Counted from the stretch's first letter, positions 3,636-50,552 are shown. The stretch: DNA of 64,000 nucleotides from a virus (IMGVR_UViG_3300046542_000168:43408-107407), one strand, 5' to 3'. Notes: generated from the letters alone by a model not told the origin. Translations and numbers: made by a program.

Positions 3636-3941
3636 ATGTGGACGAATGGCCGACAAGGCACCGGGTACGCGAAACTAACGCTCCTAGCCACCTCCAGGCT
3701 CGACTGTCACGTTTTACGATATATGCCTGGGGATAGCATTCCATCTCACACAGATAAGCTTGTGGACGGCAGGAAGCACTTCAGGATGAACATCCGGCTA
3801 GCCGGTGAAGACACTTTCAAGTGCTGCAAGGTATTGTTTAGATTCTGGCGGGTTACGATCTTCCGACCGGACCTCTATGAGCACTCAGTACCGGCAGTAA
3901 AGAGAAAACGATACATGCTCAGCATCGGCTGGGTAATATGA
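3636..3941 (+). CDS. small 2OG-Fe(II) oxygenase-like protein
   Basis: HTD...H...R arrangement (IPSHTD, YEHSV, RYMLSIGW); RBS GAGGGG before ATG 3636. Confidence 0.65.
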   Translation: MWTNGRQGTGYAKLTLLATSRLDCHVLRYMPGDSIPSHTDKLVDGRKHFRMNIRLAGEDTFKCCKVLFRFWRVTIFRPDLYEHSVPAVKRKRYMLSIGWVI

Positions 3942-3946
3942 TACAA

Positions 3947-4031
<85 letters not shown>

Positions 4032-4706: not shown

Positions 4707-4800
4707 ATTTGCGTTCCCCATGGGATGTCTGTGTGATGTGTCAGAGGATATACACGGCTTATTATTATGTAAAGCCCTTAGTGTAAAAGTTTTTTAAAAT

Positions 4801-4892: not shown

Positions 4893-4967
4893 GTGGGGCC
4901 GTGCTGCCTGGATGTAGCCATCAGGTTGTGACCCTGTTGTCGGAGTTCGAATCTCCACCTCACCCCA
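4893..4967 (+). tRNA. tRNA-His(GUG), atypical
   Basis: anticodon GTG, C73-CCA, TTCGAAT loop; 5' boundary approximate. Confidence 0.75.
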
Positions 4968-4972
4968 ATTTA

Positions 4973-5049
4973 GCGTGCTTCGTATAGCCAGGTTATTACC
5001 TCCGGCTTCCACCCGGATGACAACAGTTCGAATCTGTTAGCCCGCACCA
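4973..5049 (+). tRNA. tRNA-Gly(UCC)
   Basis: cloverleaf, anticodon TCC, A73, CCA. Confidence 0.87.
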
Positions 5050-5053
5050 ATTC

Positions 5054-5127
5054 GCTCGATTAGCTCAATGGGAGAGCAGAGCCCTTACAAGGCTTTTACG
5101 GTGGTTCGATTCCATCATTGAGCACCA
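5054..5127 (+). tRNA. tRNA-Val(UAC)
   Basis: cloverleaf, anticodon TAC, CCA. Confidence 0.9.
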
Positions 5128-43234: not shown

Positions 43235-44539
43235 ATGAACTTTATTAAGAAAGCAGGTATCGGTATTGCAGCCGGTGCCTTGGTACTGATCGGCACATTC
43301 AATAGTGTATTCGTATACAACGAAGCCGGTTATCAAACTCACATTCGTACAATCACGGGTGAAGAGAAAGTAGTTACCGAAGTTGGTTATGCCACTAAGT
43401 GGTTCGGTAAGGCCACGCCCTGGAAGCAGGCACAAACCCTCCAGTTCTCCATCGTTAAAGAAGGTGAAACAAGCCGTGAGGTTGATGACGGCGTAGGGAT
43501 CGACAACTACCGCGTTACCTTCCTGGGCAACGTTGATGGTGTTGTGGAAGCTTCCACACGATTCCGTATGCCCCAGGGCGAACAGTTCCTGAAGATTGCT
43601 CGTGAGTATCGCACTCCAGACAACTTCATGCAGACTGCTGTATTGCCAGCAGTGAAAGAGACTCTGCAAACTACAGCGTCCCTGATGACTGCCGATGAAT
43701 ACTTCGCTGGTAGCCGCTCTGAGTTTAGTTCGAACTTCGATGACCAACTTCGAAATGGCCAGTTCGCAGTTAAACGTAAGGAAGTTCAACAAGTAATTGA
43801 AACCAATCGTAGCGAAGGTGACAAGCTTGTTTCCGGTGCTGGTATTGACGGTGAACAGAAACGTACAGCGTTCGTAACTGAGAAAGAAACTGACGACAAG
43901 GGCCGTGAAGTTCGCAAGTCCCAGGTCTTCGTTGGTATGGGTGTAGACGTTGTAGAGGCTCGTGTCCCTAACATCCTGCCGAACCCTCAGTTCCTGGCTC
44001 GCATGGTCAAGGTGCAATCGGCCCAGGCGGATCTGGTAGTCGCTCGTGCGGATCGTCTGAAAGAGGAAGAGGCGAAGCTGCTGGCCATCGCTCGTGGTCA
44101 ACGCAACGTCGAAGAGAAGCGCCAAGAAACCTTGCGTAATCAGGTCGAGCAGACCACCAACGCAGAAACCACCAAGCTCCTGGCGATCACCGCTGCTAAG
44201 CAGGCTGAAGAGTCGGCAGCCATCTCTAAGCGTACCTCCGTCGAGCTGCTGGCAAAGGCTGAGATTGACGCCAAGGCGACCAAGACCACTGCTGATGCTG
44301 AGGCGTATGCGAAAAAGGCTCTGATCCTCGCTGACGGCGCTCTGACGCAGAAACTGGCTACCCTGGAGAACATCAACAGCGTGTGGGCCCAGGCTGCTGC
44401 TAACGCCCCTGTACCGAGCGTGATGATGGGTAATGGTGGTGGTCAAGGTTCTAGCCGTCAGAGTGAGATTGGTGAACTAATGTCGATCATGGCTGCAAAG
44501 GCTGCGAAAGACTTGTCGGTTGATCTTTCCACTAAGTAA
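43235..44539 (+). CDS. SPFH/Band-7 (flotillin-like) membrane protein
   Basis: N-terminal TM, Band-7-like core, long AE-rich coiled coil, VPSVMMG end. Confidence 0.85.
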   Translation: MNFIKKAGIGIAAGALVLIGTFNSVFVYNEAGYQTHIRTITGEEKVVTEVGYATKWFGKATPWKQAQTLQFSIVKEGETSREVDDGVGIDNYRVTFLGNVDGVVEASTRFRMPQGEQFLKIAREYRTPDNFMQTAVLPAVKETLQTTASLMTADEYFAGSRSEFSSNFDDQLRNGQFAVKRKEVQQVIETNRSEGDKLVSGAGIDGEQKRTAFVTEKETDDKGREVRKSQVFVGMGVDVVEARVPNILPNPQFLARMVKVQSAQADLVVARADRLKEEEAKLLAIARGQRNVEEKRQETLRNQVEQTTNAETTKLLAITAAKQAEESAAISKRTSVELLAKAEIDAKATKTTADAEAYAKKALILADGALTQKLATLENINSVWAQAAANAPVPSVMMGNGGGQGSSRQSEIGELMSIMAAKAAKDLSVDLSTK

Positions 44540-45770: not shown

Positions 45771-46268
45771 ATGGCTAGCGGCAAGAAAACGGTTAAAAAT
45801 CGTACAGAAATGACCGTCACCGATCACACGACTGGGGAGGCTCTATCGAGTGAAAAAACCGTCACGTACAGAGTCCCGAGAGAGCCGGACTTTGTAAAGG
45901 TGTACACCGGGGCCTTTAAGGAGGTAGTCACAAAGAAGGGTTGCCATCTGGCGATGTTTATGCTTCTGGTTGACAAGATGGGGTATGAGAATGAAATCGG
46001 CCTGACCCCGGCCGGTCGTGTCAGGATCTGCGAAGCCCTGGGTATCCAGGCACAGACCTTCCGAAACCATTTGAATGACTTGCTGGAGCGCGATGTTCTC
46101 CGTCGAACTAGTCACGGAGAGTTCATAGTAAACCCGACGTATATTGCCAGGGGTGAGTTCGAGAAAATTCTGCCCAGGATAGAGGCGTACAATAAGATCG
46201 GGAGGGTGAAAACTAAGAAGGGTCGGGCCCCGAAGCCTAAAGAATCCCTGGAAGAGTCAACTAATTGA
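45771..46268 (+). CDS. RepL-like wHTH replication/maintenance protein
   Basis: D..TGE, FVKVY, HTH (ICEALGIQAQTFRNHL..L), G.FIVNP.YI.RG. Confidence 0.7.
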   Translation: MASGKKTVKNRTEMTVTDHTTGEALSSEKTVTYRVPREPDFVKVYTGAFKEVVTKKGCHLAMFMLLVDKMGYENEIGLTPAGRVRICEALGIQAQTFRNHLNDLLERDVLRRTSHGEFIVNPTYIARGEFEKILPRIEAYNKIGRVKTKKGRAPKPKESLEESTN

Positions 46269-46296: not shown

Positions 46297-46371
46297 TATT
46301 TGCCCGAAATAAGGGGCTAAAACAACTAAAGGGGCCATATGGCCCCTTGCTATATACGACTTTTTACTGCC

Positions 46372-46965
46372 CTACTGGGGTGGCTGGATAAATCCATGAC
46401 TAGTCAGCCACATATCCAGGGCCTCGGTCATAATGGCTTTCTGTGACTTCTTAGTAAACATCCCAGCCAGTTTCAACAACTGGGCGCGACGGGGATCTAA
46501 TGGGGTGCTGACGTTACACTCCTTTAGAAACTCCGGGTTGAGTCCCCCTGTTTCCATCATTCCAGTTAGCATAGCAGCCATAGCCGCCATTGGATTCTGA
46601 GGTGCATCGCTCACTGGTGCAGCTTCCTGTACTGGTTGCGGTTGAGTGGGTGCAGGCTCTACTACCTGGGCAACTGGTGCAGGTTCCGCTACTTGCTGCG
46701 GTTGAACTGGCGTTGGCTGTGGTGCTGCAACTGGTGCAGGGACAACTTCTTCAGCCTGGGCGATTTCAGTCTGTGCAACTAACACAGGCTGCGGGGCTGG
46801 CTCTTCTGTTACCTGGGGCTGAGCAACTACCGGCTCTTGTACCTGGGCTGCACCTACCGCCGAGATGTTATTCACCGGGGTCGGGTTCGTAAGCATATCT
46901 TGAAGAGATAGGCGATCAGCGGCACGGTCGGCGGCGCGATCTGTTCGAGTTTTCTTGGCGCTCAT
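46372..46965 (-). CDS. ribbon-helix-helix centromere-binding protein with long P/Q/A/V linker (type Ib ParB/ParG-like)
   Basis: C-terminal NVSTPLD..RAQLLK....TKKSQKAIMTEALDMWL; basic N-terminus; downstream of parA. Confidence 0.65.
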   Translation of the reverse strand: MSAKKTRTDRAADRAADRLSLQDMLTNPTPVNNISAVGAAQVQEPVVAQPQVTEEPAPQPVLVAQTEIAQAEEVVPAPVAAPQPTPVQPQQVAEPAPVAQVVEPAPTQPQPVQEAAPVSDAPQNPMAAMAAMLTGMMETGGLNPEFLKECNVSTPLDPRRAQLLKLAGMFTKKSQKAIMTEALDMWLTSHGFIQPPQ

Positions 46966-46980
46966 AATTGCATACCTGCT

Positions 46981-47420
46981 TAATTATTCAACCACTTCTT
47001 TAAGTGGCCGCGTGATGACGTGGTTGAGCCCTCACGTCACTGATGCAGCGCTTACCTGGGCAAGCGGTCACTATAGCAACCACTCCCCTGCGTAACCCCT
47101 CACGCGATTAGATGCCTAACTGACTGATTCGTCAAGCGATCAACCACGCAAGTGACCATTCAAGTAAGCGGACACTCGGTCAATTAGCCGAGTCATCACG
47201 CGGGTGATGAATCAATCGTTCAAGCAATTGATGGATCAATGGACCGATTGAACGATGGATCAATGAAGCCATTGATCCATCGGATGTATATACAACCCAT
47301 GGGTCAATGGATCACTCGTTCAAGCAATTGATTGATCACTCGTTTGCTTGGTCAGTCACTTCGCCGCCTGCTTGCCTGACTGGTCATCCAGTTTGATGCT
47401 TGCGTGCTTGCTCGGCTTCT
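46981..47420. repeat. degenerate 4-nt-period array (candidate centromere, part 1)
   Basis: in-register tetramers caat/tgat/cgat/caag/cact; extends into the 3' end of parA. Confidence 0.7.
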
Positions 47421-48135
47421 TCACCACCTTTGCCTTGCCCACTTCTTCATTAGTAAGTGGGTCGATGATTACTGGGTTTTCGACATGAATGCCCAGCTCC
47501 ATCAGGATGCAGTCGGTTAGGGCGGCAATCTCCCTGGCACCCTTATTACGCTTATCAATCTCGGCCAGGGTGCTACCAGTTCTCAGACAGTTCACGAAAC
47601 CTGCCTTGTAGTGGATGGTAGGGCCAAGCTTCCCGGCAGACGCCAGGGCAATCACTGCATCAGTTGCAATGTTGGTGGTCGGATGTACTTCGTTCAGTAC
47701 GAACAGCCGGGGAGTAGTGATTTCTTTCGAAGTGAGGTCGCTCAACGACTTGACCATCGACCACAGGTCGAAGTAGCTAGCCTTCGAAGGCATAACCAAC
47801 AGGTCAGCAAGTTTGAGCACGTTGAAGATATCGCTGTGGCCGAAACCTGGGGTGTCGATCACCAGGAAATCCAGGCCCCCCGCTTCCAGCTTCGGGATTA
47901 CTGCTTCTAGCTGATCGATGCCGATAGCCAGCAACTCTGGGTCGCCCAACTCGCGCTTGTCCAACCATGTAGTGGTGTTCGCAGTGGGGTCGATGTCCAT
48001 CATGCCAACGTGGTAGCCCTTCGATGCCAGGGTGCCGCCGAGTTGAACGCTGATGGTGGACTTACCACAGCCGCCCTTCTGGTTGGTGACACAGATGATC
48101 TTGAGCTTACGCTTGAACTGACTAGGGAGTTGCAT
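47356..48135 (-). CDS. parA: ParA-family partition ATPase (type Ib, no N-terminal HTH)
   Basis: deviant Walker A NQKGGCGKST, DIDP, VIDTPG, ADLLVMP. Confidence 0.92.
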   Translation of the reverse strand: MQLPSQFKRKLKIICVTNQKGGCGKSTISVQLGGTLASKGYHVGMMDIDPTANTTTWLDKRELGDPELLAIGIDQLEAVIPKLEAGGLDFLVIDTPGFGHSDIFNVLKLADLLVMPSKASYFDLWSMVKSLSDLTSKEITTPRLFVLNEVHPTTNIATDAVIALASAGKLGPTIHYKAGFVNCLRTGSTLAEIDKRNKGAREIAALTDCILMELGIHVENPVIIDPLTNEEVGKAKVVKKPSKHASIKLDDQSGKQAAK

Positions 48136-48160
48136 GGGTGCTTCCTCTATATATAGGTGC

Positions 48161-48980
48161 TCACTGAGTGAGCTATTCCTTGCTAGGTTGACCGCTTACG
48201 CGGCTGAGTGCGTCCGTGCGTGGGCAAGCTATCGATGGGGCAGTCGGTCACTCGCGTAACCCATCACTGCATCAATCGCCTGGGTAATCCCCTAAGTGCG
48301 CAATTCATCGAGCCATTCATTGGCCGATCATTTCACTGCTTGAGTCATCCATCGCTCGATTGGTCGGTAGCGTGCTTCTTCACTTAATCAATGCGTCAAT
48401 CAAGTGCTTCCGCACGCAACCCATCAAGCAAGCCATTAGTCCATCCATCGCTTCCGTAAGCACTCACTGGCGCGATTCACCACTTACTTGGTCGTTCGCT
48501 TGCGTGAGTGACTGGTTACGCGGTGAAGCAACTACTGGCTTGCTCAACCACTCCCTCGCTCGACTATCTGATTGCCCGACCGATTAAGGCAGGAATCAAT
48601 CAATGAGTCAGTCAACGAAGCAGTTGCTCGATCAACCGAGTCATCACTCGGTCAGGAACTCAATCACTTGCGCCCTTGAGGAACCATTTAAACACCCGCT
48701 CGATCCCTTGTCAAACTAATTGATAGCTTAAAGCCTTCATGAATTGATCGTGCGACTGACCGATAGATCGATAGGCTGATGAATTGAGTGACCAACCGAT
48801 GGAGCGATGATTGACTGAAGTAATTGATATCTCCATTCCTGAAGCAAGCAATGCCGCACTGATGTGTGTGAGGCAATGATGACAGGACCGAATGAACAAG
48901 CGTCCAATGGGTCAAGCAATTGATGGATCAATGGGTCGAGCGTTCAATGGGTCAATGGAACCATGGGATGTATATACAAG
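48161..48980. repeat. degenerate 4-nt-period array (candidate centromere, part 2)
   Basis: same tetramer register for ~800 bp; shares TCAAGCAATTGATGGATCAATGG and GGATGTATATACAA blocks with part 1. Confidence 0.7.
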
Positions 48981-49137
48981 TAACGGTCCTACGCCGATTC
49001 TGACCAGTTCACAGGAGCTAAGCCCCTGCCAGGGCACCCAGGGTCGGCATACCGCTATCCAGGCCAATACCAGGGCAGATACGCAACGTCGCTACAGGGG
49101 GCTCATAGGGGCTTCAGGCGGTAAATTCGCAGGAGGG

Positions 49138-49704: not shown

Positions 49705-50097
49705 TTATTCGTTGAGAGTGGCCCAACCTTTTACCGCTTCAACTCCCCACTTCTTCCTCCACTCATTGAGCACTGTGTGGTTGCCGTGAGAGCTAACAAT
49801 TTTCTCGTTAGTGTGAGGATTTACCCAGGTCTTTGTGGGCCTTCCTCCCTCTGTTGTAGCTGCTGCCTTAGCTACCTTAGCTGCACCTGTAGCTTGAGCT
49901 TTCGGAGCCTTATAGTTCTCATCAAGGATCTGATTCACATCTACCAGGGAGCGAGAGTGCTTAGCTAGGAGAGCACGTAGCTCACTCTCGAATACCTGTA
50001 GCGACTTAAGCTCAGGGTCATCCTGAAGAGCATCCAGTTGAGCTTTAGCCGCAGCTAGGGCAGCTCGTGCGAGACGGAGTTGAACGATCTTGGACAT
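49705..50097 (-). CDS. second MvaT-family nucleoid protein (divergent)
   Basis: FE.ELRALL..H..SL.DV..IL and W.NPHTNE.I....GNH.VL.EW..KWG.EAV.GW. Confidence 0.85.
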   Translation of the reverse strand: MSKIVQLRLARAALAAAKAQLDALQDDPELKSLQVFESELRALLAKHSRSLVDVNQILDENYKAPKAQATGAAKVAKAAATTEGGRPTKTWVNPHTNEKIVSSHGNHTVLNEWRKKWGVEAVKGWATLNE

Positions 50098-50205
50098 ATA
50101 GCTCTCTTGCGTGATTGGTGGAAAGTCTTACACTAGCAGTGCGTTAAGTCGCGCACTATAAGCTCAAGTAGCTCGCAACGGAAGAGAGTACTCAAGCTTA
50201 AGCTC

Positions 50206-50318
50206 AAAAATTCCATCACAGGGGCCTCTCAAAAACTCCATTACAGGGGGTACAGATTTCCTCACAGTGGGGTACTGAATTTCCCTACAGGGGCTAGCTG
50301 AGTTTCCTCACACGGGGT
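50206..50318 (+). repeat. five imperfect ~23-bp direct repeats
   Basis: YTCC..YACA.GGGG cores with ACA at 50218, 50243, 50264, 50287 and 50310. Confidence 0.7.
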
Positions 50319-50384
50319 AAGCTCGATCTACCCTGGCTCGATGCTGCATTGTGAGCGTCCCCATTCATTCCTGTCTTAGATAGG

Positions 50385-50471
50385 TAGCTAACTATCGATT
50401 TACTTGCATAGCTAGCTATCGATTTAGTTGATTAGCTAACTAAGCATTTAGATGCATAGCTAACTAACTAC
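50385..50471 (+). repeat. 24-bp tandem repeat, ~3.5 copies
   Basis: TAGCTARCTA....TTTA..TG.. at 50385, 50409, 50433 and 50457. Confidence 0.75.
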
Positions 50472-50552
50472 CTGAATAGCGCCCACACTCCCCCCTTGAA
50501 GTCCGGTATCCGGCCCAGGCTGGCAGTGGCTCTGCCTGGGCTTACGTTCCCG

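Follow-up and report, generated by a model that had tools for sequence, protein, structure and literature searches.

The parA gene in a 64,000-nt stretch of viral DNA (IMGVR_UViG_3300046542_000168:43408-107407), which is termed the window here, is flanked by DNA with a sustained 4-nt periodicity, and the question is what this DNA does. The window represents bases 43408-107407 of a 107,407-bp IMG/VR virus record, and this record has direct terminal repeats. The periodic DNA forms two blocks, A and B, which are located downstream and upstream of parA respectively. The gene next to block A encodes a 197-aa protein, P0001, with a predicted ribbon-helix-helix (RHH) domain, and parA encodes a 259-aa protein, P0002. 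An earlier note on this DNA had proposed that the periodic DNA is a giant centromere or a protein-coating lattice. The virus is phage-plasmid-like and 107 kb in size, and the blocks are most likely the bipartite partition site of its type Ib ParA system. The coordinates of all features are summarized in Table 1.

The periodicity was analyzed by Fourier transformation. The power at period 4 is 22.3 in the region 46966-47355 and 39.6 in the region 48136-48980, while 2000 shuffles give a mean of 0.75, a standard deviation of 0.44 and a maximum of 3.4. The peak is located exactly at 4.00 bp, in line with the earlier note, and has a harmonic at 2.00. No spectral peak is detected at 8 or 16 bp in the lattice (the power at period 8 is ~1), and the tetramers show no significant autocorrelation at lag 2. 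The sole hint of a period-8 or period-16 superstructure is a weak autocorrelation of the tetramers at 16 and 32 bp (z ~3). Because the peak is so sharp, there is no net phase slip in the ~800-bp block. The earlier note had also reported that the register is held over this length with a brief local slip. What is seen at ~48800-48900 is a drift of the G and C phases with a weakening of the score, and the A and T phases are constant through both blocks. The period-3 power is 0.1-0.2 in the blocks, as compared to 9-10 inside parA and the RHH gene, and the blocks are therefore non-coding, as had been claimed for ~1.2 kb of this DNA. The longest open reading frames (ORFs) in them encode 75 aa. Block A spans the region from the adaptor start codon to parA, plus the last ~20 codons of parA, so that the reported entry of the lattice into the 3' end of parA is confirmed as an overlap of ~60 nt by log-odds bounds. 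Together the two blocks contain ~311 tetramers in about 1.25 kb. They share the same absolute phase, and parA is 780 nt (4 x 195) long. This shared phase was dropped as evidence, because it is a 1-in-4 coincidence and the gene lengths of the relatives are not multiples of 4.

The base composition at each lattice position defines a rule. Position 0 (remainder 0 upon division by 4) is T in.56, G in.24, C in.15 and A in.05 of the tetramers; position 1 is C in.49, T in.34 and A in.03; position 2 is G in.45, A in.39 and T in.01; and position 3 is A in.55, C in.26 and T in.07. The rule is T/G/C - C/T - A/G - A/C/G, with the consensus TYRA, and it is its own reverse complement. The central dinucleotides of 307 tetramers are CA (76), TG (65), CG (51) and TA (26), such that a pyrimidine-purine (YR) step accounts for 71%. 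This composition agrees with the earlier description of tetramers that begin with a pyrimidine, often contain a YR step and seldom end in A, in the same register. The commonest tetramers are TCAA, TTGA, GCAA and TCAC, and tetramers of both orientations are intermixed without order. The strand symmetry and the central YR step fit a two-fold-symmetric dimer that reads tetramers. GATC occurs 12 times in the lattice, always in one phase, while the lattice composition predicts ~19 sites. The GATC richness pointed out previously is thus real as to phase, but it is a by-product of the lattice and not a separate feature, because the count is below the prediction, and a role of Dam or SeqA was dropped for this reason.

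Tandem tetramers may also arise without function, as old tetranucleotide slippage arrays decayed by point substitution. Slippage naturally creates insertions and deletions in multiples of 4, and little exact repetition and a low information content per tetramer are compatible with decay. However, no founder unit dominates, since even TCAA accounts for only 26 of 307 tetramers, and the strand-symmetric exclusion of A at positions 0-1 and of T at positions 2-3 does not look like decay to background. T-to-G changes exceed T-to-C changes at position 0, unlike in mutational decay, and the block boundaries are sharp. Every repeat spacing found in the lattice is a multiple of 4. This includes the two duplications reported earlier, a 23-mer and a 14-mer, which are present on both sides of parA as described, with offsets of 1692 and 1684. 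The core modules of the two blocks are paralogous, with 80% identity over 60 nt and an 8-bp insertion or deletion between them.

The variable C-terminal tail of ParA is encoded by lattice DNA (47356-47415), and its length provides a record of the lattice phase. On the parA strand, 77% of the stop codons within the lattice begin at position 1, as do nine of the ten in-frame stops beyond parA. Because stops begin at this position, a frame that enters the lattice can stop only at each fourth codon. The stop codon of parA itself, TGA, begins at position 1, and the codons located four and eight codons upstream of it are both CAG. When P0002-P0014, P0037 and P0038 are compared, the tail past the invariant SKH anchor has 4n-1 residues (15, 23, 27 or 31 aa) in 13 of the 15 relatives, and this holds to an identity as low as 58%. 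Such quantised lengths are expected when parA reads into a phase-locked lattice. Of ~6 independent changes in tail length, five are multiples of four codons, for which the probability is roughly estimated to be ~0.005. The tail lengths indirectly support the presence of the lattice and the conservation of its phase among relatives with ParA identities down to ~58%. They lend the same indirect support to the expectation, put forward in the earlier note, that insertions and deletions in relatives are multiples of 4. That the phase is kept relative to a protein anchor over this distance also argues against decayed slippage arrays.

P0002 is a ParA protein of the small Walker type that characterizes type Ib partition systems, with a KGGCGKS P-loop near the N-terminus and no N-terminal DNA-binding domain. 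Three parts recur in P0001 and its eight homologues: the N-terminus is basic and conserved, the P/Q/A/V linker is variable, and the C-terminus is again conserved. According to the alignment and the AlphaFold2 model, P0001 has a basic helix near its N-terminus (residues 10-26) and an RHH domain at its C-terminus (residues 150-192), separated by a disordered linker of ~110 aa. The C-terminus is modeled as strand-helix-helix over residues 150-189, with a predicted local distance difference test score (pLDDT) of 83-89. When this model was compared with 48,161 PDB chains by VIA-align, almost all of the matches were RHH proteins, over residues 151-194 of P0001. The best match is PutA (Z 4.1, root mean square deviation (rmsd) 1.6 A over 40 residues), and ParG (1p94) is matched with a Z of 2.7 and an rmsd of 1.3 A over 39 residues. 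ParD, MazE, AmrZ, NikR, Arc, omega (2bnw) and pCXC100 ParB are further matches. The Z values are modest because the RHH domain is tiny. The complex of ParA with residues 1-45 of P0001 was modeled with a score of 0.72, while the best control gives 0.00. This score passes a mark that 58 of the 80 solved complexes and 2 of the 110 mismatched pairs attain. At least 73% of the contacts are common to the runs, and the partner has a pLDDT of 62 or more. The N-terminus of P0001 is thus predicted to contact ParA, although the pass may reflect likeness to solved complexes of related ParA proteins with adaptor peptides. P0001 is probably the adaptor of this ParA, judging from these models.

Close homologues of ParA and the adaptor are 94-55% identical to them, and those of ParA are located on contigs of ~105 kb. 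A blastn search with 46300-49100 detects no phage match and only a 112-bp match to parA in plasmids. When phages and plasmids were searched by tblastn, no ParA match exceeded 35% identity, and the search with the adaptor was negative for plasmids. ParA scans of viral, metagenome and genome contigs detect relatives with identities of 36% or less over substantial stretches, with higher values from short segments only.

The recurrence of the lattice was examined at 222 distant ParA loci, with a period-4 power of >6 in 200-bp windows as a threshold. These loci were taken from collections of viral, metagenome and genome sequences, and their ParA identities are 36% or less over substantial matches. 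At the 80 bacterial ParA loci (12,006 windows), the 99.9th percentile of this power is 3.5 and the maximum is 5.9. Strong period-4 blocks are detected at eight of the 222 loci, all within 1 kb of parA and beside RHH genes, and these loci form two further families, L047/L049-L058 and L004. In the former, the consensus is C-(A/C)-A-(G/A), and one lattice is found upstream of parA, next to a small RHH gene in divergent orientation. Another lattice is located within the linker-coding part of an adaptor ORF of 165-185 aa. This ORF is coupled to parA in translation, and its product combines a conserved N-terminus with a canonical RHH domain at the other end. At L056 (4758-5315), and likewise at L049, L050, L051, L053 and L058, the period-4 power of this linker lattice is 6-8 and the period-3 power is ~2. 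The linker lattice is 279 nt (93 aa) long at five of the L049-L058 loci, where it is 63-88% identical without insertions or deletions, and 339 nt long at the sixth. The difference of 60 nt is a multiple of 12, and hence of both 3 and 4. The upstream lattices of L049-L058 are too ambiguous in the MAFFT alignment for insertions and deletions to be counted. In L004, N-C-A-K lattices are located upstream of parA and downstream of its 104-aa RHH gene, so that arrays flank the par genes as in pB171. These arrays, at 3830-3970 and 5040-5100 of a 147-kb viral contig, are tetramer-phased and of the CATGCAG type, the downstream one being inverted.

Weaker tetramer-phased arrays of ~80 bp are located by parA at L091, L043, L206 and L166. 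The boxes alternate with AT-rich spacers at L091 (~2350-2450), as in TP228. Contiguous ACTC-type boxes form 16-bp units at L043 (~3900-3990). The array at L206 (~4740-4800) consists of NCAA tetramers, and that at L166 (~4900-4960) is short. A 4-bp register thus appears to be a general feature within a subset of the RHH-type partition sites, and the lattice of the window is by far the longest example among the loci surveyed. The same design beside parA in unrelated phages, and its absence elsewhere in the 107 kb, are difficult to reconcile with decayed slippage arrays without present function, and we regard this explanation as improbable.

We favor, with moderate confidence, the reading that the blocks are an oversized, spacer-less and degenerate tetramer-box centromere and operator coated by the RHH adaptor. 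P0001 dimers would insert a two-stranded beta-ribbon into the major groove on two-fold-symmetric degenerate tetramers. Since all tetramers are in one register without fixed spacers, the dimers could polymerise cooperatively in multiples of 4 bp, most likely with a dimer step of 8 bp like ParG and MetJ. Roughly 150 or more dimers would then coat ~0.45 kb and 0.8 kb of DNA. In each dimer, an N-terminal helix that binds ParA would be displayed on a disordered tether of ~110 aa, and the tethered helices would engage nucleoid-bound ParA-ATP for segregation of the element. The centromere probably also acts as an operator, in which case coating of the leader regions would lead to autoregulation of parA and the adaptor gene.

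Known type Ib partition sites are short arrays of ~100-160 bp with recognisable repeats. If the reading given above is correct, a centromere may be definable by register and purine/pyrimidine pattern instead of sequence words, and RHH adaptors, which do not spread, would have a means of assembling large partition complexes on an element of 107 kb. Centromere constraint could overlap coding DNA and quantise the lengths of protein tails. A period-4 peak beside parA would serve as a simple signature for finding such sites in phage-plasmids. We found no description of kilobase-scale period-4 partition sites in the literature.

RHH ribbons are known to read core tetramer boxes, while a helical scaffold sets the spacing of the dimers (PMC3413123). 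In TP228, ParG coats the 20 degenerate ACTC boxes of parH/OF, which are present in either orientation with 4-bp AT-rich spacers and tolerate rearrangement (PMC3130281). The window locus resembles this ParF-ParG-parH/OF system in that a small Walker ParA is combined with an RHH adaptor whose N-terminal tail is flexible (PMC3130281, PMC3413123), and in that degenerate tetramer boxes are arranged in a 4-bp register in either orientation. The TP228 site is cooperatively coated and doubles as an operator, as may be the case here. In contrast, the TP228 boxes and spacers alternate with a period of 8 over ~160 bp, all upstream of the operon, whereas the lattice has no fixed spacers, a pure period of 4, a strand-symmetric TYRA consensus and ~311 tetramers in two blocks that flank parA, one of which overlaps the parA tail. 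The 197-aa adaptor with its ~110-aa linker has no sequence similarity to ParG. The window locus thus lacks the box/spacer alternation, the ACTC consensus and the ParG homology that define TP228. The likeness to the TP228 centromere drawn in the earlier note extends to the 4-bp register, but not to the alternation of boxes with AT-rich spacers.

The par2 system of pB171 is likewise of type Ib, with an RHH ParB protein and two centromere regions that flank the genes. These regions, parC1 and parC2, contain 6-bp repeats in about 17 and 18 copies. The unit of the lattice is 4 bp, and the blocks are several times longer than the pB171 regions. parC1 and parC2 are located on both sides of the operon (PMC4270457), with parC2 after parB, whereas the second block of the window is located between parA and the adaptor gene. 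The omega heptads of pSM19035 (PDB 2bnw) and the nine 9-bp repeats for pCXC100 ParB (PMC3074162) are contiguous and spacer-less, as is the window lattice, and one RHH dimer reads each of their repeats in a cooperative coat. However, their units are 7 or 9 bp long, with a clear consensus and ~7-10 copies, while the window lattice has hundreds of 4-bp units with a weak consensus. The MetJ operators also resemble the lattice in that a YR step occurs every 4 bp in tandem boxes. When a met-box is written as CTAG-ACGT, these steps are located alternately under a dimer and between dimers. The met-boxes are tandem 8-bp sequences (AGACGTCT) (PMC3413123), but MetJ is a transcription repressor that acts at 2-5 boxes with a strong consensus, and its operators are not partition sites. 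In length, the window array exceeds its nearest known counterpart about tenfold. The best reading, by analogy, is that the window locus works like TP228 parH and pB171 parC1/parC2 and belongs to neither.

Several points weigh against coating of the lattice by the adaptor as described above. The binding of the adaptor to the lattice, its step size and the centromere and operator functions are what we infer, while the context, with a parA gene, an RHH adaptor and recurrence at other loci, agrees with the giant centromere or protein-coating lattice that the earlier note had suggested. The information content is ~1.7 bits per tetramer by log-odds scoring, and specificity would therefore need cooperativity. 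No period-8 signal is detected, although every characterized RHH array, to our knowledge, has steps of 6-11 bp. The RHH fold of P0001 is a prediction for a small domain with modest Z values; the Pfam match to Antitox_RHH is below the threshold (E 0.03), and a search of solved structures in the PDB with the P0001 sequence detects no RHH chain at E values up to 10. The P0014/P0038 lineage has a 22-aa tail, which breaks the 4n-1 rule, and conservation of the lattice among close relatives is known indirectly, through these protein tails. A scan for sigma-70 promoters detects no match inside either block, so that the operator role is a conjecture.

The spacer-less lattice may alternatively represent a distinct centromere architecture, in which RHH dimers fill the major groove continuously, either with each tetramer bound by one dimer or with 8-bp registers that shift freely, to form a kilobase filament with long disordered ParA-binding tethers. 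We consider this architecture somewhat unlikely. If it exists, the continuous filament would be a sequence-encoded substitute for ParB spreading, and the lattice constraint would be written through coding DNA, in the ParA tail here and in the adaptor linker in L049-L058.

The lattice may also be functional with another ligand, such as a phage or host DNA-binding protein or ParA itself, or by the mechanics of its DNA, in that a deformable YR step every 4 bp might act as a soft tether or as a boundary element around the par genes. YR steps are the most deformable dinucleotide steps. A gene for an MvaT-like silencer is located 0.7 kb from the lattice, and a TA-centred mini-lattice beside iterons (50370-50480) suggests a ligand beyond the par locus. 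However, the GC content of the lattice is ~52%, unlike the AT-rich DNA favored by MvaT-type silencers. ParA binds DNA without sequence preference. A 4-bp period gives no additive curvature, and an RHH gene accompanies the lattice in three unrelated families. A ligand other than the adaptor, or a mechanical role, is accordingly considered unlikely.

The blocks may instead represent long structured RNA leaders or a replication origin. Their RNA folds are more stable than those of dinucleotide shuffles (z -5.6 and -4.7), and a RepL-like gene and iterons are located nearby. When tetramers are shuffled so that the lattice is preserved, z becomes -2.2, -1.7, -1.1 and +1.8. Because the excess shrinks in this comparison, the stability arises from self-complementarity of the lattice. 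The Rfam search of the blocks is negative. The iterons are located 1.3 kb away together with a separate AT-rich array (50200-50480), and the blocks contain no repeats of iteron size. Either role is very improbable.

Table 1. Features of the par region, with positions counted from the first nucleotide of the window
Feature	Position	Strand	Evidence
SPFH/Band-7 protein, 434 aa, beside the par genes together with the RepL-like gene	43235-44539	+	PHROG 11908
RepL-like replication protein	45771-46268	+	Pfam RepL, E 5e-10
Terminator-like hairpin closing the parA-adaptor unit	46329-46348	-	Hairpin scan
P0001, 197-aa probable adaptor	46372-46965	-	Alignment, AlphaFold2 model, structure search, complex model with ParA
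Lattice block A, ~112 tetramers in a single register	46968-47415		Log-odds bounds, period-4 power 22, phase table
Core module A, best-conserved and locally palindromic part of block A	47207-47350		Repeat families D1-D3, D5, I1, I9, I12, I21
Palindrome TGTATATACA interrupting the lattice in module A	47285-47294		Sequence; repeats D5/I7
P0002 (parA), 259-aa type Ib Walker ATPase	47356-48135	-	Pfam AAA_31/MipZ/CbiA/ParA, PHROG 164
Perfect palindrome GCTCACTGAGTGAGC between block B and the parA ribosome-binding site	48159-48173		Sequence; hairpin scan
Lattice block B, ~199 tetramers, upstream of parA	48172-48968		Log-odds bounds, Fourier power, phase table
Core module B, distal end of block B	48899-48980		Repeat families D2, D5, I2, I7; sequence
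Palindrome TGTATATACA, second copy, outer edge of block B	48969-48978		Sequence; repeat search
MvaT-like xenogeneic-silencer homologue	49705-50097	-	Pfam MvaT_DBD, E 2e-6

Three TATATA-centred palindromes (47285-47294, 48146-48158 and 48969-48978) interrupt or bound the lattice, and they could be promoters or sites for a bending protein. One TGTATATACA copy is located ~0.3 kb upstream of the adaptor gene, and the other ~0.8 kb upstream of parA. The GCTCACTGAGTGAGC palindrome is a possible operator.

The gene order is that of a large siphovirus, and the terminase is 42% identical to that of the Pseudomonas phages phiPMW and vB_PpS_SYP. The par region carries genes of plasmid type, which encode the RepL-like protein, the P0001 adaptor, the P0002 ParA and the MvaT-like protein, and this phage-encoded MvaT-like gene adjoins the maintenance module. 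Five direct repeats of ~22-25 bp with an ACAGGGG-like core at their ends are located at 50200-50320, between the MvaT-like gene and the early region. These iteron-like repeats may mark a plasmid-type origin. The short array of ~100 bp at 50370-50480, beside these repeats, is the only period-4 stretch in the whole 107-kb genome outside the par lattices. It consists of TA-centred tetramers (TAGC TAAC TATC GATT...) whose absolute phase matches that of the parA lattices, and it may act as a DNA-unwinding element or as another docking array.

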